Origin: Ruminococcus sp.
GTDB lineage: Bacteria > Bacillota > Clostridia > Oscillospirales > Acutalibacteraceae
Length of the DNA stretch: 64,000 nt
Reading direction: 5' to 3'
NCBI GenBank assembly: GCA_045124035.1
Contig: JBGVLC010000032.1
Span: 30,427-94,426 of the forward strand
Shown here: positions 31,226 through 60,862 of the stretch, piece by piece
Numbering within the stretch: position 1 is the first letter of the stretch
How the letters are laid out: every line of letters begins with the position of its first letter
The notes under the pieces: model-generated
What the model was told of the DNA's origin: nothing
Seen by the model: the letters and a program-made list of their open reading frames with translations, nothing else
Database searches by the model: none
Translations under genes and position numbers: made by a program

Positions 31226-34200
31226 GTGAAAAACTTCAAAAGAACGCTCAGTTTATTGCTCAGCATCCTGATGGTTGTTTCTATGCTCACAATAGTTGCA
31301 ACAGCTCAGACATTCGCAGCAGAGACTGAGACAGCACAGACAAGCGCTGTTAAAAGTGCGGACAGTTTCTCATGGGATAACGCTTCTGTTTATTTCCTGC
31401 TTACTGACCGTTTTGTTAACGGCAACACTTCAAACGACCACTCTTACAACCGTCTTATCAACAGAGACGGCTCAGTTGTAACAGCTTCACAGCTCAACTC
31501 AACTGCTGCTACTTTCCACGGCGGTGACTTCAAGGGTATCACAAACAAAATCAAAGAGGGTTACTTTGATGACCTCGGCGTTAACGCACTTTGGATTTCA
31601 GCTCCTTATGAGCAGATTCACGGTTATGTTATCGTTGGTGAGGGTAAAAGAGACTCTGTAAAGCACTACGCTTATCACGGCTACTATGCTATGGACTACA
31701 CACAGACCGACGCTAACTTCGGTACTGCTGCTGAGTTCAAAGAGATGGTAGATACAGCTCACGAACACGACATCAGAATCGTTCTTGATATCGTTATGAA
31801 CCACCCTGGTTACAACACAATCTACGATATGAACGAGTACGGTTTCGGTTCATTTATGGCTTCTTACGGCGGTGTTGACTACGCTCTTGATCAGTACTAC
31901 AACTGGAAAAACAACGCTAACTATCACCGTTCAATCGACTACAACTCATCAGCTTCAAAAGCTTTATGGGAAAACTGGTGGGGTACAAGCTGGCTTCGTT
32001 GCGGTATCGCAGGCCACACACCATTCGGCGGTGACGACCTCACAAAATCTGCCGGCGGTGAACTCCCTGACTTCAAAACTGAGTCAAATCAGACTGTAAA
32101 CGTTCCTACTTTCCTCCAGAACAAGTGGAAGAAAGAAGGCAGATATGACAAAGAAATGGCTGACCTCAACGCATTCTTCGCTAAGGGCAACTCTAAGACA
32201 GTTCGTAACTACCTCGTTGCTTGGCTTGCTGAATGGGTTAGAGAGTACGGTGTTGACGGCTTCAGATGTGATACAGCTAAGCACGTTGAACTTCCATCTT
32301 GGAAGGCTCTCTCTGACGAGTGTACAAAAGCTCTCAACGAGTGGAGATCTAACAATAAGGGCAAGGTTGAAGCTGCTTCATGGACAGATGATTTCTGGAT
32401 GACAGCTGAGGACTACGGCTCAGGTCTCAACAAAGACAGCTACTTCACAAATGGTGGTTTTGATTCAAAAATCAACTTCTCATTCACTGGTGGCGGCGGT
32501 GTTCCAAACGCAGGCTCTATCAACAACACATACTCACAGTACGCAAGCAAGATCAACTCTGATCCAAACTTCAACGTACTTTCTTATATTTCTTCACACG
32601 ATACTGCGCTTTGCCGTGGTGATATGATTTATCAGGGTTCAGCATTCCAGCTCATGCCTGGTGCTATCCAGATTTTCTATGGTGACGAATCAAACCGTCC
32701 ATACTTAAACGATCCACTCGGCGATTCAATCAAAGATCACCAGCTTCGTTCAGATATGAACTGGAACTCACTTGACAAAAACGTTCTTGCTCATTGGCAG
32801 AAGGTTGGTCAGTTCAGAAACAACCACGTTGCTGTAGGTGCTGGTTCACACAACTCAATCACAGCAACAAGCGGCACTGCTTTCGTAAGAGATTACAACA
32901 AGAACGGCGTTACAGATACAGTATTCGCTGTAATCGCTGCTAACAAGAACACAAACGTTACTCTCACAGTTGGTTCTTATGTTTCTGACGGCACTCTCCT
33001 CAAGAACACATACGACGATTCAACAGCTACAGTATCAGGCGGCAAGGTTACATTCAACTCAGGCGCTAACGGTACTATCCTTGTTGAAATCGCAGGTGCT
33101 TCAACAACTCCTGACGTTTCTGTTTCTAACTCAGGCGGCAACTTTGCTGATACACTTTCAATCACAGCAACATTAAACGAGTTCGCTACTTCAGGTACAT
33201 ACCAGATCGGCAACGCTGCTCCTGTAACATTCACAGGTTCAAAGACATTCACAATCGGCGCTGATATGGCATTTGACCAGTCTGTTACAATCAAGTTCAC
33301 AGCTACTAACGGCACTGAAACAAAAGAGCGTTCTTACACATATACAAAGATTGACCCAACTGCAACACCATTCAAGTTCCCAACAGAGCGCACAACTTAC
33401 CTGCTCGATACAGCAGGCTGGGGTAAGGCTAACTGCTACGCTTGGATCACAGGTGGCGCTAACAATGGTCAGTGGCCTGGTCTCGCTATGAAAGAAGCTG
33501 GCGAATACGAAGGCAAGAAGGTTTACTCATACGAAGTTCCTGCTTCTATGACAAACGTTATCTTCAACAACGGCACTACTCAGACAGACGACCTCACTTT
33601 CCAGGCATACTCTTACTTCGACAACGGCTCAAAGACATGGGTAAAGGTTGATGTTCCAACACCACAACCAACACAGCCTATCCCAACACAGCCTGTTCCA
33701 ACTCAGCCAGTACCAACACAGCCTGTTCCAACTCAGCCTGTTCCAACTCAGCCTATCCCAACACAGCCAACATCAAGCGAGACAATCATCCTTGGTGACG
33801 CTGATATGGACGCTTGGGTTTCAGTTATGGACGCAACACTCATCCAGTACCATGTTGCTGATCTCAGAAAGCTCACAGCTAACGGTATGATTGCTGCTGA
33901 TGTTGATGGAGATAAGAAGGTTACTGTTCTTGATGCGACAATCATCCAGCTCTGGCTCTCACAGCTTACAAATGATTATCCAATCAACAAGCCTGTTCAG
34001 GGTACTGTAGAGCCTACAACACCTACACCAACACAGCCTGTTCCAACACAGCCTGTTCCAACTCAGCCAGTACCAACACAGCCTGTCCCAACAACTCCTG
34101 TTCCTACAGAACCACCTGTATCAGACAAGAATGTTGTATATGTTGATATGGGTTACCAGTGTTCAGCTACTGCTTACTACTGGGCTGATGGCAGCGTAGG

Positions 34201-34660
34201 TTCAGTTACATGGCCAGGCGTTGCTATGACAAATGTTTCTGGCAGCATCTACAAGGTTGAAGTTCCAAAGGACTGCAACATGATCATCTTCTCTAACAAT
34301 GGTGCTTCACAGACAGGCGACCTCACAATTCCTGGTGACAACTACATCTACCAGAACGGTAACTGGGCTCCTTACACAGGTCCTACACCTCCAGGTCCAA
34401 CTCCAAGCGGTGAATACATCTACTTCAGAGGTAGCTGGGGTAATGTTAACATCTACTACTGGAGCGATTCTAACATCACAATGACAACATGGCCAGGCGT
34501 TGCTATGGAATCAGTTGGCAACGGCGTTTTCAGAGCACAGATTCCAAGTGATGCTACAATGGTTATCTTCAACAACGGCGGTGACCAGACTGGCGACATT
34601 CCACTTCAGGGCTTCAACAAGATTTATGACAACGGCTCTTGGAGTGACTACACAGGTTAA
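31226..34660 (+). CDS. Secreted multimodular GH13 alpha-amylase: catalytic domain + Ig-like + starch-binding module + PT linker + dockerin + PT linker + 2 starch-binding (CBM26-like) modules
   Basis: GTG start with GAAAGGAAG SD; signal peptide; GH13 catalytic motifs DGFRCDTAKH, WMTAEDY, YISSHDT; dockerin GDADMDAWVSVMDATLIQ / ADVDGDKKVTVLDATIIQ; three Y.W..WPG..M..IF.N.G.QT.D modules. Confidence 0.92.
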   Translation: MKNFKRTLSLLLSILMVVSMLTIVATAQTFAAETETAQTSAVKSADSFSWDNASVYFLLTDRFVNGNTSNDHSYNRLINRDGSVVTASQLNSTAATFHGGDFKGITNKIKEGYFDDLGVNALWISAPYEQIHGYVIVGEGKRDSVKHYAYHGYYAMDYTQTDANFGTAAEFKEMVDTAHEHDIRIVLDIVMNHPGYNTIYDMNEYGFGSFMASYGGVDYALDQYYNWKNNANYHRSIDYNSSASKALWENWWGTSWLRCGIAGHTPFGGDDLTKSAGGELPDFKTESNQTVNVPTFLQNKWKKEGRYDKEMADLNAFFAKGNSKTVRNYLVAWLAEWVREYGVDGFRCDTAKHVELPSWKALSDECTKALNEWRSNNKGKVEAASWTDDFWMTAEDYGSGLNKDSYFTNGGFDSKINFSFTGGGGVPNAGSINNTYSQYASKINSDPNFNVLSYISSHDTALCRGDMIYQGSAFQLMPGAIQIFYGDESNRPYLNDPLGDSIKDHQLRSDMNWNSLDKNVLAHWQKVGQFRNNHVAVGAGSHNSITATSGTAFVRDYNKNGVTDTVFAVIAANKNTNVTLTVGSYVSDGTLLKNTYDDSTATVSGGKVTFNSGANGTILVEIAGASTTPDVSVSNSGGNFADTLSITATLNEFATSGTYQIGNAAPVTFTGSKTFTIGADMAFDQSVTIKFTATNGTETKERSYTYTKIDPTATPFKFPTERTTYLLDTAGWGKANCYAWITGGANNGQWPGLAMKEAGEYEGKKVYSYEVPASMTNVIFNNGTTQTDDLTFQAYSYFDNGSKTWVKVDVPTPQPTQPIPTQPVPTQPVPTQPVPTQPVPTQPIPTQPTSSETIILGDADMDAWVSVMDATLIQYHVADLRKLTANGMIAADVDGDKKVTVLDATIIQLWLSQLTNDYPINKPVQGTVEPTTPTPTQPVPTQPVPTQPVPTQPVPTTPVPTEPPVSDKNVVYVDMGYQCSATAYYWADGSVGSVTWPGVAMTNVSGSIYKVEVPKDCNMIIFSNNGASQTGDLTIPGDNYIYQNGNWAPYTGPTPPGPTPSGEYIYFRGSWGNVNIYYWSDSNITMTTWPGVAMESVGNGVFRAQIPSDATMVIFNNGGDQTGDIPLQGFNKIYDNGSWSDYTG
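33668..33772 (+). repeat. 15-nt tandem repeat encoding a PTQP(V/I) linker (7 units)
   Basis: ccaacacagcct(g/a)tt-type units visible; the protein reads PTQPIPTQPV... Confidence 0.9.
34028..34117 (+). repeat. Second PTQPV linker repeat (about 6 units)
   Basis: PTQPV x4, then PTTPV and PTEPP. Confidence 0.9.
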
Positions 34661-40472: not shown

Positions 40473-40559
40473 GCACCTGTGGCGGAATTGGCAGACGCGT
40501 ATGGTTCAGGTCCATATCTTTTCACGAAGGTGCAGGTTCAAGTCCTGTCAGGTGCACCA
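40473..40559 (+). tRNA. tRNA-Leu(CAG)
   Basis: Acceptor stem GCACCTG/CAGGTGC, anticodon stem TATGG/CCATA with loop TTCAGGT, long variable arm, GGTTCAAGTCC T arm, encoded CCA. Confidence 0.95.
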
Positions 40560-40562
40560 GTA

Positions 40563-40602
40563 TGAGTGTTCATAACGTATTTAAGTTATGAACACTCTTT
40601 TT
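40563..40602 (+). terminator. Terminator after the tRNA
   Basis: GAGTGTTCATAAC/GTTATGAACACTC stem plus T tract. Confidence 0.85.
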
Positions 40603-40663
40603 TATTCAAATTCTTCTAATATGTATGCGTGAGCAGGTTATGTGCCTGCTCACTTTTTTGTTA

Positions 40664-41054
40664 TTATGCTGACTTTCTTGGGATATACTCAACCTCAACA
40701 CCTATGCGTGTGTCGGCTTTGTAATTTTCATCTTCGGGCAACATTGGAATGTTAATAAACCCGACAAAGCGGTAGTATATAACAAGTTCTTGAGTATAGC
40801 ATTTGTTTCCGCCTTGCTTTTCGTGAACATCAATATGGTCAATGAGTTCTCGAAGCATTGGTGCTGTAAGAATTCTCATTTCCATAAACTTTCGGACAGC
40901 TTTGATGAAATCATCTTTGTCTTGCTTCATTTCACCGATTTTGGAAAGACGTTCTCTGTACTCAGCAATGTTGCTTTTTAGTTCAAGTCGCTCTGTTTCA
41001 TATTTACGGAGCAACTCCATAAACATCTCGTCGCTGACTTTGCCTGTTACATTA
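40664..41054 (-). pseudogene. C-terminal remnant of a large serine recombinase (DUF4368-type tail)
   Basis: NVTGKVSDEMFMELLRKYETE..LRELIDHIDVHE..QELVIYYRFVGFI; an in-frame stop lies just upstream, and the catalytic and recombinase domains are absent. Confidence 0.75.
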
Positions 41055-41343
41055 ACTTACGTTTAGGCGCAGGTATGTCATCGCATATTAACATTTCTAA
41101 AAAGTCATCCGTTATTCTCATCTGCGTTTGACGTTTATATCTTACTTTAAGTTTCCCATCAACTTTCACAGGCTCACAAAAGTCTTTTTTACTGATTGTA
41201 AAATATCCGCTGTCATTTCTGCGAGAATAGGGAGTGTAAATAACAGTATCCTCACCACTCAGTTCATCTTTAGCAATGGTGATCACATAAATAAGCTTGC
41301 CATCATACCGCTTGTAGTAGCCAGCATACCTCGCTTGTTGTAT
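41047..41343 (-). pseudogene. Start-less fragment resembling DUF1653
   Basis: GYYKRYDGKLIYVITIAKDELSGEDTVIYTPY..F..PVKVDGK; the frame is open up to the stop of the upstream gene, with no SD-supported in-frame start. Confidence 0.4.
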
Positions 41344-41592
41344 TTATTGTTCATTGTGTTTATCCTTGAGTTTTAAAAGTATATATTCATAACTATCTCT
41401 GTTATGGGGAATCAGACAATTGGTGCAATCTTTTGTTTTGTTATCAATCAAGGTGTAATTTCCGCCACATTCAGACAGAGAATACAGAGGGCAATAACAA
41501 AACAAGCAGTTGAAGTTATCATCATTTTCCATCTTATGGCAAGGGAAATATTCACACTCGTAGTTTCTGAAAAATTTAGAACTGTTATTCAT
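41344..41592 (-). CDS. Cysteine-rich small domain protein
   Basis: FFRNYECEYFPCH..FNCLFCYCPLY..CGGNY..KDCTNCLIPH. Confidence 0.85.
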   Translation of the reverse strand: MNNSSKFFRNYECEYFPCHKMENDDNFNCLFCYCPLYSLSECGGNYTLIDNKTKDCTNCLIPHNRDSYEYILLKLKDKHNEQ

Positions 41593-41604
41593 GGAGCACT
41601 CCTG

Positions 41605-44250
41605 TCATTCAATCAGACCGTATTTTATTTTTATTCGGTCAAGTTTTTCAAGCATCGGTTCTGATACAAGCAAAAGAAATAAAGCCGTTGAAAAACCGTG
41701 AATCAAATCCATCGGCAAACCTGTCACATAGTAAGCAAACAACATCTCAAAATTTACTGACTGCGGTGAAATCATCAAAGCCGCCGCAGGGTTCATTATA
41801 CCACCGTATATTACAACCGCACACAAAACGCCAAACACAGCAAGTGACATTCTTGTTCTTCTGAGCCATCCTTTTTTGAACAGTACACCTGCCAAAAACC
41901 CAATTATACCCATCGCAAACATCTGCCAAGGTGTCCATGGACCTTGTGAAAACAACATATTTGATGTAAGCATTGTAACAGCACCTACTAAAAATCCTGT
42001 TTCTCCACCCAAGGCTACACCTGCAATTATTGTCAAAGCCATAACTGGTTTGAACTGCGGCAGCATAAAAAACAGGCTTCGTCCTGCAACTGCTATGCCA
42101 CACAGCACAGCTATTGTAACAAGCTCTCTTGCTTTTGGTTTTCTGCCCTCAAAGACGAGCACAAATGGTAACATACACTCGAGTAGCACAAGCAGGGCAA
42201 TTATGTTGTAATAGTCATCATCAAGATAGAACACACCGCAAAAAATTGTAAGTGGTATGAAAAGTAAAATCAGAACTGAAGCAGTAATAGTTCGTCTGTT
42301 TAGTTTTCGATGTTGTTTATCAGTTTGCACCATAATCGGTGCTGGACTTCTTCGACCTATCGAGAGTATAAACACCGACAAAGCCACAAACAAGACTATA
42401 TATAATTTCAGCTGACCAAAACCTTGTTCACTTATACCTGATGAATTCACCATTGAAGATAATTCTGTTATCCCTGTTGCATATAAAAATACAGCAAAAG
42501 CAACAAGCATTGAAACACAAGCTATCAGCTTTCGCCACAATGGAAGTGGCTTTGGTTTGAAGCTTACACTTCTTTTTGAGACTTGCGGTAGTGGTGTTAT
42601 CGTTTCATCTTCTTCTGCTTCTTCTTTGATTTCTGCACCACAGCAATATGTAATATCTTCAACTGTTACAGCCTTTGGTATAAGGTGGCGAGCCATACGA
42701 TTTGCAGGAGTAGTGTAAAAGCTGTTGCCCGAGAAAAACTCTCTTGGTGTGCCTTCTGCAACAATATTGCCGTCAAAAAACATTCCGCAACGGTGAGCAT
42801 ATTCAGCACAAAAGCTTACATCGTGGCTGACCATAAGAATTGTCACACCTTGCTTTAACAGCTTTTTCAGAATATTTGCAAAGCTGACTTTAAATTCCGC
42901 ATCAAAACCTTTTGTCGGTTCATCTAAAAGCAACACATCAGGAGAAGTAAGCAACACTTTTGCAAGGGCTGTACGCTGTTGTTCACCGCCTGAGATGTCA
43001 TAAGGATGACGGTCAAGAAAAGCTGAAAGCTCACATAATTTTACTACACGGGCAACCTGCTCGTCCTTTTCTTCCTTTGTCATTTTAGCACCTTTGAACA
43101 CTTCATATAAATCTTCTCGAACAGTGCGTTTCACAAAAAGTGTCTGGGGATTCTGAGGAAGATGTGCAAGCTTTCCTTTTATTTTCACATCTCCTCTGTA
43201 TGATGGCAGTATTCCTGAAATTACTTTTAATGCAGTTGTTTTTCCTGCACCATTACCACCTAGTAATGCATAGAAATCGCTTTTTCTGAGTTCAAGTGAA
43301 AAACCTTTGACCACATCAGGTGAGTCTTTCTCGTATCGAAACCAGATGTTATCAACTCTCAAAGCTACATCTTCACTTTGAATTAAATCGTCTTTTTTAT
43401 AAAGCTCCCTGAGGGGCTTTTCTTTATTTCTGCTGTTTAAAAAATCACTGCCATCACGCACAGTAAGAGGACAACTTAAATCTGTCTCAACTCCTGCCCA
43501 TACACGCATAGCAGTTGGCATAGCAAGAAACATTGAGTTTTCTTTTTCTTTGAGAGTCAGTCCGACTTTCTGAGGAACATCATCACAGATTATTTCGCCT
43601 TTTTCCATAACAACAACCCTAGTTGCATAGACAAAAGCTTCTTCGAGGCGGTGCTCTGTGAGTATAACAGTTGTGCCGAGTTCTCGGTTGATTCTGCCGA
43701 GAAGTGCCAAAAAGTCGGTTGCCGCAATCGGGTCAAGCTGTGCTGTAGGTTCATCAAGCACCAGCACGCTTGGTTGCATAGCCATAACAGAAGCTAAACT
43801 TAACAGCTGTTTCTGTCCGCCTGACAGTTCGCTGACGTTTTTATAAAACCATTTTTCAATTCCGAAAAAAGCCGCTACTTCTGCAACTCGTCTGCGGATT
43901 GTCGGCGTATCATAGCCTAAACTTTCAAGACCGAACGCAAGCTCATGCCACACCTTATCGGTTACAACCTGATTTTCGGGTGACTGCATAACAAAGCCGA
44001 TTTTCTGAGATTGAGTGCGTGCGTCAACGTCATCAAGTTTATACCCATCAAAAAGAATGTCACCTGTTAAAGTTCCGTGTGGTTTAAGGCAGGTTTTCAA
44101 ATGCCTTAAAAGAGTTGATTTACCACAACCTGACGGACCACAAAGCACTAAAAATTCACCTTGTGTTACCTCAAAAGAAATGCTTTTGAGTGCTCTTTGC
44201 TCCTGCTCAGGATACGAAAAGCTCACATTTTTGAATATATAGTTTTCCAT
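41605..44250 (-). CDS. ECF transporter: tandem ATPase (A-A') fused to a C-terminal S component (CbrT-like, cobalamin)
   Basis: Two Walker A motifs (GPSGCGKST, GGNGAGKTT), LSGGQ and ISGGE signatures; C-terminal multi-TM region with PQFKPVMAL..GFLVGA..SNMLFSQGPWTPWQMFAMG. Confidence 0.88.
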   Translation of the reverse strand: MENYIFKNVSFSYPEQEQRALKSISFEVTQGEFLVLCGPSGCGKSTLLRHLKTCLKPHGTLTGDILFDGYKLDDVDARTQSQKIGFVMQSPENQVVTDKVWHELAFGLESLGYDTPTIRRRVAEVAAFFGIEKWFYKNVSELSGGQKQLLSLASVMAMQPSVLVLDEPTAQLDPIAATDFLALLGRINRELGTTVILTEHRLEEAFVYATRVVVMEKGEIICDDVPQKVGLTLKEKENSMFLAMPTAMRVWAGVETDLSCPLTVRDGSDFLNSRNKEKPLRELYKKDDLIQSEDVALRVDNIWFRYEKDSPDVVKGFSLELRKSDFYALLGGNGAGKTTALKVISGILPSYRGDVKIKGKLAHLPQNPQTLFVKRTVREDLYEVFKGAKMTKEEKDEQVARVVKLCELSAFLDRHPYDISGGEQQRTALAKVLLTSPDVLLLDEPTKGFDAEFKVSFANILKKLLKQGVTILMVSHDVSFCAEYAHRCGMFFDGNIVAEGTPREFFSGNSFYTTPANRMARHLIPKAVTVEDITYCCGAEIKEEAEEDETITPLPQVSKRSVSFKPKPLPLWRKLIACVSMLVAFAVFLYATGITELSSMVNSSGISEQGFGQLKLYIVLFVALSVFILSIGRRSPAPIMVQTDKQHRKLNRRTITASVLILLFIPLTIFCGVFYLDDDYYNIIALLVLLECMLPFVLVFEGRKPKARELVTIAVLCGIAVAGRSLFFMLPQFKPVMALTIIAGVALGGETGFLVGAVTMLTSNMLFSQGPWTPWQMFAMGIIGFLAGVLFKKGWLRRTRMSLAVFGVLCAVVIYGGIMNPAAALMISPQSVNFEMLFAYYVTGLPMDLIHGFSTALFLLLVSEPMLEKLDRIKIKYGLIE

Positions 44251-45113
44251 TTTCTATCCTCCACAGTGTTGAGCACAACAGGTGTTATGCATAGTCCAAA
44301 GTAAATAAAATAAAAAGGTATGGTTGTAATATTGAAAGCTGAGTATCGTATATCCGGAAAATATCTGAAACCAAAGGCAGATACTATAACTCCAGCCAGA
44401 AGATACAGAAAACAGAACACAAACCATACAAGTACGTATTTATCCCTATCCTCAAAACGATAAATAGAAAACGCTGTTCTGCCCTTTAAGCCGTAACCTC
44501 GGCTTTTCATACTGTCAGCAGTTTCGATTGCATTCTCAAGCGACCACGTTATCATAATCGACATAATTGTTATTGCAGTTTTTGTGCGACTGATAAGACT
44601 TCCGCTTGATATATCTCTGCCGATACATCTTTGTGCATCTGCTACATTTTTCATCTGAGTTTTGAATTTCGGTACAAAACGTAAGGTCATACTGAGCACT
44701 AACGATAATGCGGGTATAACCTTGCCGAAAAGATAAATAAACTTATCAGATGTCATAACGCAGTTGAAAGCCGAAAACCACAACAGCAAAGTTATAATCA
44801 TACCGCCTGACGAAAAACCATAGAGTATGCTTTCAAGTGTCAGCGGATTACCGTTTGAAAAATACAGCAAAATAGTTTTGCCCTCGTGATTAAAAGCAGG
44901 GTTAATGAACGCCGTGAGTAAGACAAGTGGTAAGCAGAATTTCAGCAAAAAGCCTACACTTTTCTTTCCCTGTGTGCTGATAACATAAACGACAGCACAC
45001 AAGAGTGAAATAAGCTGTGCAAACGGATGGTTGATTACCATTGAAAATCCGATTGTAAGCGTAAAATATATTAAATTAACAAAAGGATGATACTTAGAAA
45101 AAGAATCACGCAT
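44223..45113 (-). CDS. ECF transporter T component (CbiQ/EcfT)
   Basis: YHPFVNLIYF, MTLRFVPKF, LENAIETADSMKSRGYG. Confidence 0.9.
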   Translation of the reverse strand: MRDSFSKYHPFVNLIYFTLTIGFSMVINHPFAQLISLLCAVVYVISTQGKKSVGFLLKFCLPLVLLTAFINPAFNHEGKTILLYFSNGNPLTLESILYGFSSGGMIITLLLWFSAFNCVMTSDKFIYLFGKVIPALSLVLSMTLRFVPKFKTQMKNVADAQRCIGRDISSGSLISRTKTAITIMSIMITWSLENAIETADSMKSRGYGLKGRTAFSIYRFEDRDKYVLVWFVFCFLYLLAGVIVSAFGFRYFPDIRYSAFNITTIPFYFIYFGLCITPVVLNTVEDRKWKTIYSKM

Positions 45114-45116
45114 ATT

Positions 45117-46244
45117 TTATCCCATCCAATCGCAACCTACATCTTTACCTAAATCACAGGTGTATCGCCATTCAACAACTTCACCTTGCACAAGCTGATA
45201 ACGAGAGCAACCATAGTTTGGATACCAACCATTAACCCTGTAAGTCCAACCTGATAGATTACCACAATCAAACTCATACAGGTTATGGATACCCTCTATG
45301 TACGCACTGTTATAAATCGGAGTCCATGATGATTCAAGGTGTATATTATTTTCTTTACACACACGCTGAAGAACATCAAACACAGACTCGCCCTCAAAGA
45401 AAGTAACTGTTGTCGCAGGTAAAATCACACCATTTGATGGTACAAGTTCTAATTTATCAGGGTCCAGGTCTTCAAGATTATTGAGTATAGTTGAACACTC
45501 AATAGAAAATGTGCAGGTATATGTTTTTTCGTTATTTATATCTTGATTTTCAGGTTCTACAGGTCTTGGTTTACCCTGTGGTATAGGGTCTGTTTTATAC
45601 TTATCCTGTTCTGAGTCACTTCCGTCGGAATATACTCTGCCACCTGACTGCAAAGAACCACTCAGGTATTCATCAGTCTTTACATCATCTGAATCGTTCT
45701 TTGTTTTATCTTTGTCAGACGAAACCACTTTGTTCTCTGTTGCTTGTTGCTGTGTAGTGTCAGGAGTTATGATACAACTTTCAACGATTTTATTAACAGA
45801 AATATTCAGGATACTCTCTTTTGTTCCTGTGAGCGACACCGAATAAACGGGCTTATCATCCGAATATGCTGTTGCACTAAGGCAGTCCCACTTCTCGTTC
45901 AGATAAACAGAAAGTAACATCGGAAATCCGAAATCCTCTTTCTGTGAAAACTCGATTATTATTCCATCTTTATTCTTAATATCAGTTAAAAGATTTATAT
46001 CTTTCGTTTCAACAATATCGCTACCAAAAACTGTCCATTCATAAGAATAGTCACCCGACTTACCCGTAAAAGTAGCGATTGCATTTTCGTCTTTAATGTG
46101 ATTTAAAACACTTTTTTCAATTATTCCGTCTTCGGGAATCGCTATGTCAGATTGTAAATCAACCTGAGAAAAGTTACCCTCACACGCACATAGTAAAAAT
46201 AACAACACTATACTTATCAGTATGCTTAAAAACTTTTTCATCAC
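45117..46244 (-). CDS. Lipoprotein with a C-terminal DUF4430 domain (putative cobalamin-binding)
   Basis: Lipobox LCAC; GESVFDVLQRVC, YIEGIHNLYEFDCG..SGWTYRVNGWYPNYGCSRY, WRYTCDLGKD. Confidence 0.82.
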   Translation of the reverse strand: MMKKFLSILISIVLLFLLCACEGNFSQVDLQSDIAIPEDGIIEKSVLNHIKDENAIATFTGKSGDYSYEWTVFGSDIVETKDINLLTDIKNKDGIIIEFSQKEDFGFPMLLSVYLNEKWDCLSATAYSDDKPVYSVSLTGTKESILNISVNKIVESCIITPDTTQQQATENKVVSSDKDKTKNDSDDVKTDEYLSGSLQSGGRVYSDGSDSEQDKYKTDPIPQGKPRPVEPENQDINNEKTYTCTFSIECSTILNNLEDLDPDKLELVPSNGVILPATTVTFFEGESVFDVLQRVCKENNIHLESSWTPIYNSAYIEGIHNLYEFDCGNLSGWTYRVNGWYPNYGCSRYQLVQGEVVEWRYTCDLGKDVGCDWMG

Positions 46245-46892
46245 TTATTCACCAACAACAATTTTTCCGTTTTTGACTTTCAATGTTTTCTGTATCATCG
46301 CAAGGCTCTCTTTTTCGTCTGATGCTGCAAAAACAGCATCCTCAACTATGAGGTCAAAGACTTCGTCTGTTCTTGCACCACCTTTTATACGGAAATTCAT
46401 TCTATAAACAACATTGTCTTTTTCTTCGAGTAACTCCTGACTGAATGAATTTTTGCCACCTGTTGTATCGAGATACATAATATTGATAAGTCCCGATTTA
46501 TTGCATTGTTCTACATTACAGCTAAACTCAGGGAGCTTGACATCTTCACCTGATGTTGCATTGTTATAAACATAAACATTTCCTTCTTCAAGTCCCAAAA
46601 ACTCAAGTTTTGAATTGTCAAAAGAAATGCTCGAACTGAAAGCAGGATATTTTGCTTCTCCAAGACTTGTAACAGTAACATCAAGAGATACTGTATCATC
46701 TTGTGACAAACTTATCTTCTGCGGTGTTTCAACAATCAGGGTAGGTTTTGACCTGAAAATATCATCCTTTTTAAAAACAAGAAATATAATCAGTAATATA
46801 ACAAGAATAATTGCAATTAAGATGATAATAATTCTTTTCTTTTTTTTAGAGTTCTTAACTTCTTTATTAAGAGTTTCAACCTTTTCTTCCAT
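46245..46892 (-). CDS. Membrane-anchored cohesin-like protein
   Basis: KKKKR followed by a strongly hydrophobic helix, then a beta-rich domain with the cohesin pattern V.LDVTV..AFSSSISFDNSKLEFLGLEEG..GLINIMYLD..VYRMNFRIK. Confidence 0.7.
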   Translation of the reverse strand: MEEKVETLNKEVKNSKKKKRIIIILIAIILVILLIIFLVFKKDDIFRSKPTLIVETPQKISLSQDDTVSLDVTVTSLGEAKYPAFSSSISFDNSKLEFLGLEEGNVYVYNNATSGEDVKLPEFSCNVEQCNKSGLINIMYLDTTGGKNSFSQELLEEKDNVVYRMNFRIKGGARTDEVFDLIVEDAVFAASDEKESLAMIQKTLKVKNGKIVVGE

Positions 46893-46956
46893 ACAAAACC
46901 TCCTGATTATACCATTTAAAGGGCAGAGAAATTCTCCGCCCTTTAAATAAACTTAC

Positions 46957-49749
46957 TTAGTTTGCTAAAGCTGCCGCTTTTGTAACTACCTGATAATCTG
47001 TGCCATTTACAAATGATTCTACGATACCAAGTGCATCGAATGTATTTACACGGCTGTCTGAGTTTACGTTGAGTGCTAAAATCTCGTTGTCATGTGGAGC
47101 ATCGCTCTTTCTGAGCCACGCATCAACGGCTGAAAGTGCATCCTGTGCGTTTACAATGCCATCAAAATTCGCATCACCAAACTGCAACGCCTCAGCTTTT
47201 GTATCTTCAATTTCAAAGTTTGACTTGTCTGCAAAATTCTGCATATCAATTGATGCAGGTACAATAGCCACATAAGACGAAACACCTGTTTTACTGCTTA
47301 TCTCAGGACTGTATTTGAAGTCAACAGCATTTGTGCCATCGTTATATGTAACCTTTGTCTGTTCATCAACTGATGTAACAGAAAGAGCCACAGCTTTTTT
47401 GCTTGATGGGATAAGGTCAACGTCATCACCCTGATAGAGGCAAATTGCGTTGAACGATACACCCTGTACAACATTCACGCTACCGCTTGCTTTGTCTGTT
47501 TTTACAACAATAATTGAGTCAGGATTAGTTGAGTCAGAGTTAAGCTTTACTGACATACCTGTTAAAGAGATATCGAGAACATCACCGGCTTTTGCTGTAT
47601 CAACCCTGAACTTAACTGTGAACAGATCAGCAGGGAAAGATGTACCTGTACCTGTAACTGTAATATCGTTGTTATTATTTGCATCAAAGTAAACTACTCT
47701 GAGCTTTCTTGTAGAATTTTCAACATACCAGTTGATTTCACCGCCATTTAAGCAGTTATTTGCAACAACATCTTCTACTGCAACACCACTTGGAATGTTC
47801 ATAACATAGTCGATAAGTTTATAAGCTCCATTGTTGTCCCACTGATTGATGCTGATTACACCATTGAATGTTGCACCTTTTGTGTCTTCGATTTCAGCAG
47901 GCACAGAAAGTGTAGCTGTCAAATCACCTTTTACAGGTGTTACAACTTCTTCAAATGTAACATCAGACATATTGTAAAGTGATGTTTTACCTGTAACTAA
48001 ACGCTTGTAAGCAATAAGAGCATAGCAAGCCTGATCGGTTGCCATTGCGTTTGAATCACCAGACTGAGCGTGCTTGAACATAGCATCATCTTCTACGTAA
48101 TAAGAAAGAAGATTATCAACAGCAGAATTGCCGTCTTTAATAAATCTTATGTCAGTATCAGGATTAATGCCCCAAGTTGTACAAGCAACGATAATCTGAG
48201 CCGCACTTTCAGATGTTTCGCCTGTGCCATATAAGAATCCACCGGTTGAAAGCTGTTCTCTCGATAAACGGTCAAATGCTTTTTGTGCCGCATTTGTTAC
48301 ATCAGCTTTGTCACGATATGGGTACAAAGCCTGTAATGCCATACCTGTAATATCGGTATTCATAGATGAACCTGACATAGCCCAACCACCATCAGCAAGC
48401 TGTTTTTCAAGAAGATAATCAACGCACTGCTGACGGATTGTTTCATCCTCTGTCATATAATTGTTTGTATCTAATGCGATAAGTGTATAGATAACACCGT
48501 TGATACCCTGTTTCTTAACCCAGGAAAAGTCACTGTAATTAGCTGTTAAGTCCCAGTTACCAACAGAAGTTGCATCTTTACCAATAGATGATAAAGCAAG
48601 GATAACACGTGAATTATCTGTTGATTTTGATTTATGTAATGCACCATTTAAGTTAATTGATTCAGCCTTGCTGTTAACATACTCAACAATGCGGTCATAG
48701 TAAGCTTCAAAATACTCATCACCTGTGTTGAAGTACTCGCCACGAGCAAGACAAAGAACTGTCCATTCACCTGCATTTGTACCAAAGGCAGGCTCTGTTA
48801 CTGTATCAGCAAGCTGAGCTAAAGTTGCATTTAATACAGCACTGACATCCTGTGGCTGACGAACAGGTGTATCTTTACCTTTTACAGTAATGCTTGCAAA
48901 AGCAGGAGCAGATACGATTGCACTTGGATATTCTGCACCGTAACCACCATTACACCAGAGATACCAAGTGCCTGATTTAAGTGCAGGGATAGTAGCTACA
49001 CCACTGCTGTCAGTTGTTACTGTGCCCATAGCTTCGCCTAATGTTTTGCCGTAAGAGACCGAGCAGTCAGCTACCTCACTAAGTGCTAATTCGCCACCAA
49101 AACCGCCACCGCTTCTGACTAAACTAATAGGAAGCTCTTTGTCAGCGTCTACTTCATATGAGTGAGTAATCTCACCATTTGCATCTGCAAAATAGTTAAA
49201 ACCTGCCGCTGAGTCCATCCAGAACTCCCAGCTTGTATAGCCTGCGATGTCGTAAAAATCACCTGATTTAAGGCTTAAATTATCCGCTGTTGCACCCCAA
49301 CCCGGAGAAAGCTCAGGATATATACCATTGAGGTAGTAATTTAAGTTGCAGTCAGGAAAACCAAAAAGTCCTTCCTGAAAGAAGATACTGCTTGGACTAC
49401 CCGAAACAACAACATCGCTCCAATCAAGACCAAAAAGCTCTTCGTGAGTGTAAATATATAAGTGAAGTGCTGTTACATCATATTTACCGTCACCATCACC
49501 ATCATAATAGAAGTCTGATAATCCGTATTCATCTAAACTGATATTTTCAAGTGCAGACATTGGCACTTCTGCGTAAGCAATAGGTTTATCGTTTTTGTCG
49601 TTGACAAACTCCCCGTCAAAGCTTATTGAAATATAAATGCTGTCTTTTTCTGTTGCAAACACTGTGAAAGGCAAAGCAGTGACTATCATTAAAACAGTAA
49701 GCAACAAACAAAGTAGTTTTTGTGTTATGTTTTTACTTTTTGTTTTCAT
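46957..49749 (-). CDS. Secreted surface protein: DUF4430-like domain + Ig-like + prenyltransferase/squalene-cyclase-type alpha/alpha barrel + cohesin-like + dockerin
   Basis: Signal peptide; NYYLNGIYP..WGATADNLSLKSGD; EWTVLCLAR, QGINGVIYTLIALD, QLADGGW..DITGMALQAL, ATDQACYAL; two Ca-binding loops GDANFDGIVNAQDA and NVNSDSRVNTFDA. Confidence 0.75.
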   Translation of the reverse strand: MKTKSKNITQKLLCLLLTVLMIVTALPFTVFATEKDSIYISISFDGEFVNDKNDKPIAYAEVPMSALENISLDEYGLSDFYYDGDGDGKYDVTALHLYIYTHEELFGLDWSDVVVSGSPSSIFFQEGLFGFPDCNLNYYLNGIYPELSPGWGATADNLSLKSGDFYDIAGYTSWEFWMDSAAGFNYFADANGEITHSYEVDADKELPISLVRSGGGFGGELALSEVADCSVSYGKTLGEAMGTVTTDSSGVATIPALKSGTWYLWCNGGYGAEYPSAIVSAPAFASITVKGKDTPVRQPQDVSAVLNATLAQLADTVTEPAFGTNAGEWTVLCLARGEYFNTGDEYFEAYYDRIVEYVNSKAESINLNGALHKSKSTDNSRVILALSSIGKDATSVGNWDLTANYSDFSWVKKQGINGVIYTLIALDTNNYMTEDETIRQQCVDYLLEKQLADGGWAMSGSSMNTDITGMALQALYPYRDKADVTNAAQKAFDRLSREQLSTGGFLYGTGETSESAAQIIVACTTWGINPDTDIRFIKDGNSAVDNLLSYYVEDDAMFKHAQSGDSNAMATDQACYALIAYKRLVTGKTSLYNMSDVTFEEVVTPVKGDLTATLSVPAEIEDTKGATFNGVISINQWDNNGAYKLIDYVMNIPSGVAVEDVVANNCLNGGEINWYVENSTRKLRVVYFDANNNNDITVTGTGTSFPADLFTVKFRVDTAKAGDVLDISLTGMSVKLNSDSTNPDSIIVVKTDKASGSVNVVQGVSFNAICLYQGDDVDLIPSSKKAVALSVTSVDEQTKVTYNDGTNAVDFKYSPEISSKTGVSSYVAIVPASIDMQNFADKSNFEIEDTKAEALQFGDANFDGIVNAQDALSAVDAWLRKSDAPHDNEILALNVNSDSRVNTFDALGIVESFVNGTDYQVVTKAAALAN

Positions 49750-49769
49750 AAAAAATTTCCTTTCTTGTT

Positions 49770-49997
49770 TTACACAAGTTTCTTTTTTGTTTTTCTTTTC
49801 TTCGTTTTCTTAGGAACTAAGGATTTAGGCTCTTTAAGACCAGCCGTTTCCAAAGCTCTTGGCCACGGACCGAGAAAGGCTTTTATTCGTGAACGTGTTA
49901 CTTCATCGAAATCATCCTTGTGCGGAAGTCTACCAAGTTCCCTATTTTTCTCTATTAAAAGTTCTACCGCCCAGGACTTTTTCTCTTCAGTTGTCAC
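49770..49997 (-). CDS. 75-aa basic protein resembling a stand-alone homing-endonuclease-associated repeat
   Basis: GTG start with AGAGGAGG SD; ELGRLPHKDDF..IKAFLGPWPRALETAGL; Lys-rich tail. Confidence 0.6.
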   Translation of the reverse strand: MTTEEKKSWAVELLIEKNRELGRLPHKDDFDEVTRSRIKAFLGPWPRALETAGLKEPKSLVPKKTKKRKTKKKLV

Positions 49998-50105
49998 ATT
50001 TATCCCTCCTCTAAAAGCAAGTGCCTCGCACGGGTTTTGTGCAGACAGTGCATATTTTCTGTACTTTTCATTCCCGAGTATGATCTTACAGCTTCCTATA
50101 AAAGT

Positions 50106-50146
50106 AAAAAAATACTCTCCCAACATAAAGGTCGGAAGAGTACAAC
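50106..50146 (-). terminator. Second intrinsic terminator in the B12 leader
   Basis: TACTCTTCCGAC-N6-GTTGGGAGAGTA followed by T7. Confidence 0.65.
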
Positions 50147-50185
50147 AGATTTAAAGCACGCCAAAACAGCTTTGAATTACACATA

Positions 50186-50240
50186 TAAAAAAGAGTGCCA
50201 ACCCAAAGCCGCCAAAAGCGGTAAATCGGTTGCACTCTTC
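50186..50240 (-). terminator. Riboswitch expression-platform terminator
   Basis: AAGAGTGCAACC...GGTTGGCACTCTT-TTTT with an internal CCGC/GCGG hairpin. Confidence 0.7.
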
Positions 50241-50269
50241 TCACCAAAGTTGTGTTTAACCTAAAAAAG

Positions 50270-50445
50270 AAACGGCAGGTCTCCTGACTTATGATACTGT
50301 GTACTACACCTAAAAGCACTCCTTCTCAGGATATCCCCAATGGCTCTTGTGCCTTTTATATCAAATACAGTAATGGCGGTTGTTCCGGATTCGAACCGGA
50401 TTCCCTTTTACATTTACTCAGCTTACAACTTTTCAAACCGTATCT
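50270..50445 (-). promoter_or_regulatory. Cobalamin riboswitch
   Basis: AAAAGGGAATCCGGTTCGAATCCGGAACAACCGCCATTACTGTA...GCCATTGGG...GAAGG...AAGTCAGGAGACCTGCC, matching the B12-element consensus. Confidence 0.92.
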
Positions 50446-50471
50446 TCTTATATCGATATTTAATTTTAGTT

Positions 50472-50500
50472 ATTATACCATAGATAGAATCAATTTTCAA
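50472..50500 (-). promoter_or_regulatory. SigA promoter of the B12 operon
   Basis: TTGAAA-N17-TATAAT with an extended TG. Confidence 0.7.
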
Positions 50501-50510: not shown

Positions 50511-51188
50511 TCATTCTATCCGATATTTCATACAAGGTCTGCCGCCAGTTTCGTAGTTGATCTCACTGACCACTCTACCCGACTGAGCAAGATAATTCAT
50601 ATATCTTCTAACTGTTACACTCGTAAGATTTACCTTTTCGGCAATTTCGTCGCCTGTGAACCAAACGTTTTTATTGGCTTTCAGATATTCCATAATCAGT
50701 TCAAGGGTTTTTTCCTGAATACCTTTCGGGAAAAGAGCATCGCTCTTTTTGCGTGAATTTTCGATAATGTGGTCAATGCTTTTTTGGTTTAATGTATCAA
50801 TATCCTTGAGCGCATTGTTTTGTGCGATATATTTTTCAAGTGCCATTTGGAAACGGTCAAAGGTAAAGGGCTTTACGAGATAATCCACAATACCAAGGTG
50901 CAATGCTTCTTCTAAAGACTCACGCTCTTTTGCTGCAGTCACCATAATAGCATCTACGACAATTTGTTTGTTGCGGATCTGTCTGAGCGTCTCAAAGCCG
51001 TCCATTTTGGGCATAAACACATCCAAAATCAAAAGATCTGCCGTGTTATTTTCAAGGAAATCAAGAGCACTCAGACCGTCATTACATTTGCCGACAATTT
51101 CAAAGTTCTTGTTTCTCTTTATGTATTGTTCGTTTATCATTGCGACCATCGGGTCGTCTTCTACGATCAAAACCTTATACATTGCCAT
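50511..51188 (-). CDS. CitB/DcuR/MalR family response regulator
   Basis: VLIVEDDPMV, LLILDVFMP, DYLVKPFT; C-terminal HTH SVTVRRYMNYL. Confidence 0.9.
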   Translation of the reverse strand: MAMYKVLIVEDDPMVAMINEQYIKRNKNFEIVGKCNDGLSALDFLENNTADLLILDVFMPKMDGFETLRQIRNKQIVVDAIMVTAAKERESLEEALHLGIVDYLVKPFTFDRFQMALEKYIAQNNALKDIDTLNQKSIDHIIENSRKKSDALFPKGIQEKTLELIMEYLKANKNVWFTGDEIAEKVNLTSVTVRRYMNYLAQSGRVVSEINYETGGRPCMKYRIE

Positions 51189-52782
51189 TCTCCTTCACAA
51201 AACTTACCGAGAAAGAACTGCCCACGCCCTCTTGTGATTCCACCGTGATTTTTCCGCCGAAGTTTTCTACCATTGATTTTACTTGATGAAGTCCCGTGCC
51301 TCTACCATCACCTTTGGTAGAAAATCCGTTTTCAAAGATAAGTTCCATATCCTCATTTTTAATACCGCTACCTGTATCGTCAACAGTAATCAGCACAGCT
51401 CCGGGTTTGGAGTAAATACCGAACATCAGTTCTTTATGTTTATTGTAGTCGGTGCTTTTATTCATTGCGTCAAAGGCATTATCAAGAAGGTTGCCGATAA
51501 CGGTTATCAGCATTTCGGAGGGAAGATTCATATCTGCCGGAGAATAATAACATCCCTCACGCAGTACAAAATTTATGTTGAGTTCGGAGGCTCTTGCGAT
51601 TTTTCCGATGAGAAGTGCCGCAACAGCAGGCTCGCTTACAGCATTCATAACCTTACTGATATTTTCACGCTGAACCATAGTGATGTTTTGGATGTATGAA
51701 CTTGCATCATCATACATTTCCATCTGAATAAGACCGAGAATAACGTGAAGCTTATTTGTGAAATCGTGATTGTTTGCTCTCATAGAATCAACAAGATACC
51801 GTGTTCCCGAAAGTTCTTCCATTAGTTTTGTATATTCGGCTCGGTTATGAAGAATGGCGATTATGCCTACAGTAACTCCATCTTCCTTAATCGGTACACG
51901 GTCAAGAATGATATCCGTCTTTGCAAGATTGATGTTCCTTTCCTTGTCGCCGCTTTTTATGTTACGGGAAAGAATATCATCACCGATAATATCCACACTT
52001 TGTCCAACAAGGTTATTAAGCGGATGATCGAAAAGCATACGAATAGCAGATTCATTGGCAAACTGTATGACGCCGTTTGTATCAAAAGCGATGATACCTT
52101 CCGCCAAGGTTTCAAGGATATTGTCACGCATTCTATACATCGCCGTGAATACATCAGGTTCGTATCCCATAAGGCTCTTTTTGATTTTACCCGAAAGTTT
52201 TCCCGCAATAATGAGTTCAATGAGAATGGCTACTACAGTGATAATCAGGAAGATAAACAACATCTGTGCCGTTTCTGCTTTGATGTTTTTCGTCAGCATA
52301 ATCGCCATAACCACGCCGACGTATTCTCCGTCCTCGTCATACACCGCAGCATAAGCACGGCGCTGATTTCCTGATGGGCCGCTTTCGTTCACAGCGTAGT
52401 AACCGTCCGTATTGCTTTTAAAATCGGGCATATTTCCGTCATATCTTGTTCCGATCAAAGTGTGGTTGGAGTGATACATACGAACGCCGTCTTTGTTTAC
52501 AACGGAGATGACGTCAATATCGTCAAGAGTATCCTTCAAGGCATCAAGATATTCAACGATAACAGTCTCTTCTTCGATGCTCTTACCCGTCATCATTGGA
52601 GAATTAGCAATCGCTTCGGCTACGTTTTGTAGATTTTGGTCGCGCTTCTCCGTTTCAAAATGAATATTGATAAGCGTTCCCGCAACACCTAAAATCAGTG
52701 CCAATGAGAGAATCAAAATAAGCTGAGTCCGAAAGAACAATTTTTGAATACCGCTGAGCGATATTCTTTGCCTGTCAGCCAT
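51175..52782 (-). CDS. CitA/DcuS family sensor histidine kinase
   Basis: Two TM helices around a Cache-like domain; PAS-like region; MRANNHDFTNKLHVILGL H-box; GNLLDNAFDA, DDTGSGI, GFSTKG, GTGL. Confidence 0.9.
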   Translation of the reverse strand: MADRQRISLSGIQKLFFRTQLILILSLALILGVAGTLINIHFETEKRDQNLQNVAEAIANSPMMTGKSIEEETVIVEYLDALKDTLDDIDVISVVNKDGVRMYHSNHTLIGTRYDGNMPDFKSNTDGYYAVNESGPSGNQRRAYAAVYDEDGEYVGVVMAIMLTKNIKAETAQMLFIFLIITVVAILIELIIAGKLSGKIKKSLMGYEPDVFTAMYRMRDNILETLAEGIIAFDTNGVIQFANESAIRMLFDHPLNNLVGQSVDIIGDDILSRNIKSGDKERNINLAKTDIILDRVPIKEDGVTVGIIAILHNRAEYTKLMEELSGTRYLVDSMRANNHDFTNKLHVILGLIQMEMYDDASSYIQNITMVQRENISKVMNAVSEPAVAALLIGKIARASELNINFVLREGCYYSPADMNLPSEMLITVIGNLLDNAFDAMNKSTDYNKHKELMFGIYSKPGAVLITVDDTGSGIKNEDMELIFENGFSTKGDGRGTGLHQVKSMVENFGGKITVESQEGVGSSFSVSFVKENGNV

Positions 52783-53012
52783 TTGTTTTCCTGCTTTCAT
52801 ACCTTTACCATCCCTGATATCAATCCCTAAGTTCGAGTTATTATATCATAATTGAACGTTTTTTTCAATTTCCTAACCTTTTAAAAGGACTTTTGAAAGT
52901 AAAAAAAGTGGGTAAAAACGTCTATATATGTTTCTATTTTTCAAAAAATTGTTTTCTATACTTTTCGGTGCTATCCTATTTGCGAAATCAAAAAACGCAA
53001 AGGAGATATGTT

Positions 53013-59213: not shown

Positions 59214-59222
59214 ATTTTCACC

Positions 59223-59993
59223 TTAATTTCTCAAAAATCCTGTTAATGGGTCTGAAGCAGATGCACCACGAGTAAGCACTCTGCCAAGACCGGAAAGATA
59301 TGCTTTTCGTCCTGCTTCAATAGCATTCTTGAAAGCAGAAGCCATCATCGGAAGATCTCCTGCTGTTGCAAGAGCTGTATTAGCCATAATAGCAGAAGCA
59401 CCCATCTCCATAGCTTCACAAGCCTGTGAAGGTCTGCCGATACCCGCATCTACAATAATTGGCACATCAATTTCATCAATAAGAATCTGAATGAACTCTT
59501 TTGTCGCAAGACCCTTGTTAGAACCGATAGGCGAAGCCAAAGGCATCACAGAAGCTGCACCTGCATTCACTAAATCTCTTGCGACGTTCAAATCGGGATA
59601 CATATACGGCATAACCACAAAGCCCTCTTTAGCAAGGATTTCGGTTGCTTTTATAGTTTCCTGATTATCAGGCAAAAGATATTTTGAATCACGCATGATC
59701 TCAATTTTTACAAAATCACCACAGCCAAGCTCACGTGCTAAACGAGCAATTCGCACAGCTTCTTCCGCATTTCTTGCGCCCGATGTATTAGGAAGCAAAG
59801 TAATTCCCTGTGGAATATAATCGAGTATATTTTCCTGTTCTTTTGTGTTAGCTCTGCGAACTGCAAGAGTGATTATCTCGGCACCTGCATCCTTTACTGC
59901 CGCTTCAATCAGCTTCATAGAATACTTACCGGAACCGAGAATAAAACGGGAATTAAACTCGTGTCCGCCAATAATCAATTTGTCATTATTCAT
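59223..59993 (-). CDS. thiG: Thiazole synthase
   Basis: [43 protein letters not shown]. Confidence 0.97.
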
Positions 59994-60011
59994 TTTTATA
60001 TCCTTCTTTCA

Positions 60012-60647: not shown

Positions 60648-60648
60648 C

Positions 60649-60843: not shown

Positions 60844-60862
60844 AAAAACACCTCCAAAACAA

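Follow-up and report, generated by a model that had tools for sequence, protein, structure and literature searches.

A minus-strand operon in a 64,000-nucleotide (nt) stretch of contig JBGVLC010000032.1 from Ruminococcus sp. (GCA_045124035.1), hereafter the window, probably encodes the single, B12-repressed corrinoid uptake system of this organism, including a secreted capture protein that would be tethered by a cohesin-dockerin pair; a probability of roughly three in four is assigned to this reading. The importer and the two types of capture protein belong to a kind of system that is already known and experimentally almost untouched, while the cohesin-dockerin tether is the new part. All elements of the operon lie on the minus strand and coordinates refer to the window (Table 1); the host genome is 2.1 Mb in size and 99% complete.

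The operon is preceded by a promoter-like site situated 15 nt upstream of a cobalamin riboswitch aptamer, which was matched by the full covariance model (positions 1-189) with 86.7 bits against a gathering threshold of 31.5 (E 5e-20). A genome-wide search detected only this one copy of RF00174 in the host. The element is kept upstream of the operon in six of six orthologous loci tested and occurs also in five architecturally different relatives (L082, L083, L087, L088 and L089). Terminator-like hairpins sit between the aptamer and the first open reading frame (ORF), and the leader probably acts as a transcriptional OFF switch. Seven co-directional ORFs follow, with intergenic gaps of -28 to 64 nt, encoding a small protein, a secreted protein of 930 amino acids (aa) that carries a dockerin, a cohesin anchored by a transmembrane (TM) helix, a lipoprotein with a DUF4430 domain, EcfT, a fusion of EcfA, EcfA' and S, and a Cys-rich protein. 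Relatives of the 930-aa protein were found in 198 species genomes, from which 80 loci were fetched; the order from the small ORF to the A-A'-S gene is the same in 80 of 80 loci where the flank suffices, so that the arrangement is far beyond chance. A previous reading of this DNA from its letters alone (the original prediction) had called the promoter, the cobalamin riboswitch and a tightly packed, co-directional gene series in this order, and these calls hold, with Pfam matches for each of the DUF4430 lipoprotein, EcfT, the ATPase-ATPase-S fusion and the Cys-rich protein. Its statement that the operon contains no glycoside hydrolase agrees with profile scans of the operon proteins, which returned neither a glycoside hydrolase nor a carbohydrate-binding module (CBM).

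The constituents of an energy-coupling factor (ECF) transporter are all encoded, namely EcfT, two ABC ATPase domains and a membrane S component. The ATPase domains reach 340 bits with TIGR04520 (ECF_ATPase_1), above the cut-off of 315 bits, and 325 bits with TIGR04521 (ECF_ATPase_2), just under the cut-off of 330 bits. For the S part (approximately residues 700-881) the sole match in the PDB was CbrT (6FNP_A, E 9e-6 over 171 residues), a modest similarity. ECF-CbrT is a proven importer of cobalamin and cobinamide, and hemin does not compete with B12 in this transporter (PMC5997447). The host genome encodes proteins with a B12-binding domain, one of them in an 803-aa frame that may be MetH. CbiB and CobS were not found in the host genome; because both are missing the host needs complete cobamides from outside, and by its gene content it is a corrinoid auxotroph. 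One variant operon continues with cobT and cobU.

Two extracytoplasmic proteins accompany the importer. In the lipoprotein the DUF4430/SLBB domain is C-terminal (residues 285-362, nt 45159-45392). In proteins of the transcobalamin family (TCN), the C-terminal (beta, SLBB) domain is a DUF4430 domain (PMC4350170; PMC1796856). Bacterial SLBB proteins were described by Burroughs et al. (2007) as secreted proteins that frequently have an alpha/alpha toroid in the same chain or in an accompanying gene; SLBB genes occur in CbiO/CbiQ operons of B12 non-producers, and a role in B12 scavenging was predicted in silico (PMC1796856). Such a toroid is present in the 930-aa protein, for which more than 1100 homologues were found and an AlphaFold2 (AF2) model based on 40 orthologues has a mean pLDDT of 83.7. 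The order of its domains is signal peptide, N-terminal domain (N-domain), Ig-like domain, alpha/alpha toroid, cohesin-fold module, X module and dockerin. The toroid, which had escaped the original prediction, is likely the B12-binding part of the protein and is proposed as an analogue of the transcobalamin alpha domain on the basis of operon context and literature; toroid genes of relatives always lie beside DUF4430 and ECF genes, usually behind a B12 riboswitch.

Regarding the lipoprotein, residues 22-200 form a conserved domain without a Pfam match, which is replaced by a cohesin in L082 and is absent in L081 and L088. A second DUF4430 lipoprotein (161 aa) is encoded in the same genome (G000 C21:29522-30561, plus strand) and is followed by a 185-aa multi-pass membrane protein resembling a solitary S component; no cobalamin riboswitch was found at this locus.

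A type I dockerin is built from two repeats, about 22 residues long, in which an EF-hand-like Ca-binding loop (D/N at positions 1, 3, 5 and 12) is followed by a helix. Both Ca-binding loop repeats, as read from the sequence, are intact in the dockerin of the 930-aa protein, which scores 19.9 bits with Pfam PF00404 in hmmscan (cut-off 22.9) and 25.6 bits in a six-frame search; PF00404 is present in most orthologues. The gene of the 215-aa cohesin follows the dockerin gene in every orthologous locus reaching that far (64 non-redundant homologues). Its product has a Lys-rich cytoplasmic N-terminus, a TM helix at about residues 20-41 and an extracellular cohesin at residues 48-215, and is proposed from sequence comparison as the receptor of the operon dockerin. 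Searches against PDB sequences gave nothing useful for this protein, the DUF4430 lipoprotein or the small ORF. Concerning the cohesin-fold module inside the 930-aa protein, more than 20 solved cohesins were matched by Foldseek (E 1e-7 to 1e-5, target TM-score 0.6-0.76); Pfam Cohesin did not detect the module in the window protein, and its orthologue in G319 reaches the Pfam cut-off with 24.9 bits. The internal module and the 215-aa cohesin were aligned end to end by hhalign with a non-significant E of 0.04 and gave no BLAST match. The X module and the dockerin make up the part that the 930-aa protein has in common with a compact 491-aa variant (29% identity, E 1e-17). The cohesin-like module, the dockerin (previously placed at 46990-47185) and the TM-anchored cohesin-like protein of the original prediction were thus all recovered. 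The word "scaffold" that it had used was too strong, as single cohesins provide a one-to-one tether and not a multi-enzyme scaffoldin.

The host possesses a rich set of modules of this type, with 58 dockerin and 8 cohesin matches in its genome, including multi-cohesin proteins. It is an amylosome-type Ruminococcus related to R. bromii, since the window also carries the gene of a GH13-CBM26-dockerin amylase, a GH13 alpha-amylase of 1160 aa with a dockerin and three CBM26 modules (31178..34660, plus strand). Within this set, only one of the 58 dockerins is more divergent than that of the operon, whose mean identity is 24% versus a median of 40% and which is one of the two without the helix motif D[A/V/S][T/S]xx[Q/R], present in the other 56.

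The pairing of both modules can be followed across genomes. When dockerins were counted in 20 host genomes, eight turned out to encode a single one, that of the operon, located in a frame of approximately 930-1150 aa. Cohesin matches in these eight are limited to the neighbouring TM-cohesin (about 210 aa), joined in two genomes by the internal module of the large protein. Because these genomes contain neither a cellulosome nor an amylosome, the modules have no partner but each other. The way in which the toroid protein is anchored also varies with the presence of the pair. Dockerin and operon cohesin are present where the toroid protein has no anchor of its own (window, L001-L080, L081, L086 and L090), and both are missing where it bears a lipoprotein signal (L083), a C-terminal TM helix (L084, L085 and L087) or an LPXTG-like signal (L088); a toroid protein with SLH repeats, P0240, of which the protein alone was compared, likewise has no dockerin. 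In L082 a single protein combines the cohesin (34% identity to that of the window, E 1e-30) with the DUF4430 domain (70% identity), and the toroid protein lacks the internal cohesin module and ends in a single-repeat dockerin remnant, DLNGDGIVNAQD.

Compact variants (L081:6663-12341 and L086:8001-13655) encode a 491-aa toroid-X-dockerin protein, a 185-aa TM-cohesin, a 166-aa DUF4430 protein, EcfT, and separate A-A' and S proteins, and are devoid of the N-domains and of the internal cohesin module; the L081 cohesin is homologous to the 215-aa cohesin of the window (E 5e-16). As the compact variants keep the TM-cohesin and drop the internal module, the former and not the latter is the constant partner. 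The prediction that the operon cohesin and dockerin form a self-contained, private pair is largely supported by these sequence comparisons. The riboswitch, the likeness to CbrT, the corrinoid auxotrophy of the host, the recognition of both cohesin modules and the dockerin by Pfam or fold, the pairing in the eight genomes and the swapping of anchors also speak for the central proposal of the original prediction, i.e., that cellulosome-type hardware tethers a predicted B12-capture protein beside the DUF4430 lipoprotein and the ECF importer.

Several observations weigh against this interpretation and are best considered together with the alternatives. No cobalamin riboswitch is detectable in the compact human-gut variant L081. 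The sequence may fit either the TM-anchored or the internal cohesin as receptor of the dockerin, and the other cohesins of the host (8 matches) could receive it as well. In L089:1108-3541 the toroid protein carries a full dockerin of a more ordinary type, but its gene and that of the DUF4430 lipoprotein have no cohesin gene between them; this locus retains riboswitch and HNH-repeat ORF. A B12 system could exist in which the 215-aa cohesin is not the partner of the dockerin, which docks instead on amylosome or wall-anchored scaffoldins, or only on internal modules of other copies giving soluble oligomers, with the 215-aa cohesin serving another protein or acting as an Ig-like spacer. The dockerin without operon cohesin in L089, the abundance of dockerins and multi-cohesin proteins in the host and the combination of cohesin fold and dockerin in a single protein, as in Amy4 of R. 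bromii (PMC4611034), are compatible with such an arrangement. It is nevertheless rather improbable, as the eight genomes have neither module outside the operon, the membrane cohesin is kept in all three architectures, the internal module being absent from L081 and L082, and the operon dockerin is unlike the amylosome-type dockerins of the host.

The remaining alternatives concern the ligand and the nature of the 930-aa protein. Heme uptake was proposed for the ECF operon lsa1836-1840 of Lactobacillus sakei, which has the same types of accessory proteins (bioRxiv 10.1101/864751), so that the import of another tetrapyrrole such as heme, or of corrinoid precursors only, has to be weighed; it is very unlikely given the cobalamin riboswitch at the head of the operon here and in most relatives, the match of the S part to CbrT, in which hemin is no competitor of B12, and the fact that precursors would be useless to a host missing CbiB and CobS. 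A surface enzyme or a protease-trap-like protein unrelated to ligand capture would agree with the toroid itself, which resembles terpene cyclases by sequence and multidomain proteins of the TEP/complement type by fold. Its Pfam matches, to SQHop_cyclase_C and Prenyltrans, are weak; a profile of 39 diverse toroid proteins retrieved squalene-hopene cyclase from the PDB sequences at E 1e-11, and only terpene cyclases and alpha-2-macroglobulin-type proteins altogether. Foldseek searches with the whole 930-aa model gave TEP1, complement C5 and C3b as top matches, with alpha-2-macroglobulin at rank 26. Transcobalamin, intrinsic factor and haptocorrin were absent both from the PDB matches of the toroid profile and from the top 50 Foldseek matches, and fragments of relatives are labelled "terpene cyclase/mutase family protein" at NCBI. 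However, D374-V-D-D-T-A of squalene-hopene cyclase aligns with D-P-D-I-T-A in the consensus of the family and with N-T-D-I-T-G in the window protein, i.e., the catalytic DxDD is replaced by (D/N)xDI in the toroid family, which makes cyclase activity unlikely. No CGEQ thioester motif was seen in the 930-aa sequence. Together with the extracytoplasmic location, far from isoprenoid substrates, and the constant company of DUF4430 and ECF genes, this leaves the enzyme or protease-trap reading hardly credible.

If the operon is indeed a tethered corrinoid uptake system, low intracellular cobalamin would allow transcription to pass the terminators of the leader through the riboswitch, yielding a dedicated ECF importer that consists, by homology, of EcfT and the fused EcfA-A'-S with its CbrT-like S component. 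The secreted toroid protein and the DUF4430 lipoprotein would represent the two halves of a transcobalamin-like binder, for which B12 binding is suggested by the genomic context and the 2007 prediction. As comparative genomics indicates, the X-dockerin of the anchorless toroid protein would most likely plug, with Ca2+, into the 215-aa membrane cohesin, and this docking would keep the capture protein on the membrane, close to the DUF4430 lipoprotein and the importer. A corrinoid captured by toroid and DUF4430 domain would then be delivered to the CbrT-like S component and imported at the expense of ATP. The pair would be private to the operon and would not need the amylosome scaffoldins of the host. 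More speculatively, the internal cohesin-fold module may bind dockerins of other copies, giving a multimerised capture layer. A bolder version, which is possible although doubtful, holds that the pair assembles a split transcobalamin, in which docking joins toroid and DUF4430, the latter fused to the cohesin in one relative, around the corrinoid for its transfer to the CbrT-like S component, and the internal module chains copies into a Ca2+-dependent, riboswitch-controlled, multi-copy layer, and that the whole is a self-sufficient cassette mobile among gut Clostridia, including cellulosome-free ones.

ECF transporters are classically importers without extracytoplasmic binding proteins. The operon shares with ECF-CbrT of Lactobacillus delbrueckii (6FNP) an EcfT, two ATPase domains and a CbrT-like S component, and both occur in B12-auxotrophic Firmicutes; it differs in fusing EcfA, EcfA' and S, together with two additional TM helices, into a polypeptide of 881 aa, in dedicating this module to the operon, and in adding extracellular capture proteins and the cohesin-dockerin pair (Santos et al. 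2018, PMC5997447). Closer in gene content are the transcobalamin-like SLBB/DUF4430 operons (PMC1796856) and lsa1836-1840 of L. sakei, which encodes separate secreted proteins resembling the alpha and beta parts of transcobalamin (bioRxiv 10.1101/864751); they share toroid and DUF4430 proteins together with ECF T and A genes and belong to B12 non-producers. In the systems described in 2007, Gram-positive wall anchors and fusions to Ig, FIVAR, fasciclin and propeller domains were reported and neither dockerin nor cohesin was mentioned (PMC1796856), while the toroid protein of the window is predicted to be anchored indirectly via the cohesin encoded in the operon.

The combination of an X module and a Ca-loop dockerin with a single surface-anchored cohesin, used for tethering and not for catalysis, is known from the CttA/ScaB XDoc-ScaE pairs of R. 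flavefaciens and from Sca2/Sca5 of R. bromii (PMC4611034). In contrast to these cellulosome and amylosome pairs, the cohesin of the window is held by an N-terminal TM helix instead of a sortase signal or SLH domain, and the operon has one cohesin gene and one dockerin, encodes no carbohydrate-active enzyme and is controlled by a riboswitch for a vitamin. Cellulosomes and amylosomes are defined by a scaffoldin that integrates dockerin-bearing carbohydrate-active enzymes; here single cohesins were found, with a dockerin that is an outlier relative to the 56 amylosome-type dockerins of the host. A dockerin on a "putative terpene cyclase" of R. bromii was listed without comment (PMC4611034), and this protein of strain L2-63 may correspond to the compact variant. 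The idea of surface-exposed, high-affinity corrinoid binders encoded in riboswitch-controlled gut loci and feeding a transporter is the same as in BtuG/BtuH of Bacteroides, but these have unrelated folds, a Gram-negative envelope, the TonB-dependent BtuB and direct lipid anchors, and no cohesin-dockerin pair (PMC8941943). In the literature, no description was found that links cohesin or dockerin with cobalamin uptake, DUF4430 or ECF, and B12 is not mentioned in the R. bromii amylosome papers or in recent cellulosome surveys.

Extracellular corrinoid capture by Gram-positive gut anaerobes is essentially uncharacterised, and the operon points to a defined apparatus for it. If the proposal is correct, it would provide a clean, private, one-to-one cohesin-dockerin pair used for nutrient uptake, even where the genome encodes neither module elsewhere. 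The operon is a warning against the common practice of taking the number of dockerins in a genome as a sign of a cellulosome. The pair could serve protein engineering as an orthogonal connector, and the capture proteins are candidates to explain the competition for B12 analogues in the gut.

Approximately 200 species genomes, of Clostridia from ruminants and the hindgut, carry the operon, and the protein clusters of the compact variant comprise 3,000-4,500 members from public sequencing runs. Among 300 evenly sampled genomes of the order, a single one, from another family, encodes a homologue of the 215-aa cohesin; the sampled genomes from the family of the window have none. The fetched loci derive from metagenome-assembled genomes with labels, which are unreliable, such as Ruminococcus, Acutalibacteraceae, Faecousia, Lawsonibacter and names of the Lachnospiraceae type; their identity is 50-60%, except for L001 (98%) and L002 (84%). 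Such a scattered distribution suggests that the operon spreads laterally as a self-sufficient cassette. Downstream of the operon (40473..41286) lie a tRNA gene (plus strand, 40473-40556) and two short minus-strand ORF fragments resembling recombinases or mobile elements, which fit the patchy spread across families (1 of 300).

Table 1. Features of the putative corrinoid uptake operon, in the order of transcription; positions refer to the window and residues to the 930-aa protein.
Feature	Position (nt)	Strand	Basis
Sigma-70-type promoter-like site, TTGAAA-17-TATAAT with extended TG	50472..50500	-	11/12 matches
Cobalamin riboswitch aptamer, RF00174	50257..50457	-	Rfam covariance model
Expression platform, 1-2 terminator-like hairpins with U-tracts	50105..50240 (~50235-50190; 50143..50112)	-	z-score -6.5 vs shuffles
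Small cytoplasmic protein, HNH_repeat and Lys-rich tail	49770..49997	-	Pfam PF18780, E 1.2e-8
930-aa secreted protein	46957..49749	-	Signal peptide residues 1-33; AF2 model
N-terminal alpha+beta domain, residues 37-190	49180..49641	-	AF2 pLDDT 93
Ig/prealbumin-like beta-sandwich, residues 197-290	48880..49161	-	AF2; weak CarboxypepD_reg and DUF4198 matches
Alpha/alpha toroid, residues 300-590, proposed corrinoid-binding domain	47980..48852	-	All-helical in AF2
Internal cohesin-fold module, residues 610-760	47470..47922	-	Foldseek vs PDB
X module, beta-sandwich directly before dockerin, residues 765-851	47197..47457	-	AF2 secondary structure
Dockerin, residues 855-915, Ca-loop repeats DANFDGIVNAQD and NVNSDSRVNTFD	47005..47187	-	Pfam and PDB dockerin matches
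215-aa type-II membrane protein (cohesin)	46245..46892	-	Pfam Cohesin PF00963, 30.7 bits vs cut-off 24.1
375-aa lipoprotein, lipobox Cys21	45117..46244	-	Pfam DUF4430, 56.3 bits
EcfT, CbiQ family, transmembrane coupling component	44223..45113	-	Pfam CbiQ, 39.9 bits
881-aa EcfA-EcfA'-S fusion, two extra TM helices	41605..44250	-	ABC_tran twice; ECF-ribofla_trS 36.8 bits
82-aa Cys-rich protein, PF04071 zf-like	41344..41592	-	Pfam 82.4 bits

The N-domain of the 930-aa protein has no convincing structural or Pfam relative, as only weak, generic Ig-type matches were obtained with Foldseek. A divergent DUF4430 had been suspected from a shared Y.(L/V)NG.YP...GD pattern and was rejected: hhalign gave E 0.04 over 33 columns, and none of 45 homologues showed a DUF4430 Pfam signal in this domain. 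Three proteins (P0041, P0051 and P0052) are 82-84% identical to the window protein over about 640 C-terminal residues, from toroid to dockerin. Residue-by-residue comparison showed the N-terminal ~265 residues of P0041 to be unrelated to the window protein; the N-domain, which varies between relatives, is thus a swappable module, and possibly a determinant of specificity.

The small ORF that opens the operon, described as basic in the original prediction, has a Lys-rich tail and is most likely shorter than listed. The mechanical listing, 49770..50126 (118 aa), overlaps the second hairpin. Its homologues (approximately 70 loci) align only from about residue 44 of this frame, so that the most likely start is the GTG at 49997, giving 75 aa; an AGGAGGG ribosome-binding site at 50010-50004 precedes this codon. 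The product contains a single HNH_repeat motif, lacks a signal peptide, gave no relative in the PDB or in PHROGs, and is encoded between the riboswitch and the first capture gene. The ORF is also present in variant operons without the cohesin-dockerin pair (L083:6910-7134) and in L089:897-1136. At the other end of the operon, the Cys-rich gene begins 12 nt past the ECF fusion gene and gave no match in PHROGs; it was found at the same position in only six fetched loci (L004, L006, L007, L008, L010 and L038) and is an optional last gene of the operon.

Directly upstream of the operon promoter (50511..52800, minus strand) a two-component system is encoded, with a sensor kinase (sCache_3, PAS and SPOB_a) and a response regulator with an HTH_11 domain, which is syntenic in L032 and L037 only. 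Other regulatory RNAs of the window are two thiamine pyrophosphate (TPP) riboswitches (60918..61023 and 62295..62400, minus strand), in tandem loci upstream of genes of thiamine-thiazole biosynthesis for ThiF, ThiG and a ThiH-like radical SAM protein (57960..61649), and a T-box leader (98.9 bits, 11933..12129, minus strand) upstream of the alanyl-tRNA synthetase gene (9186..11819).

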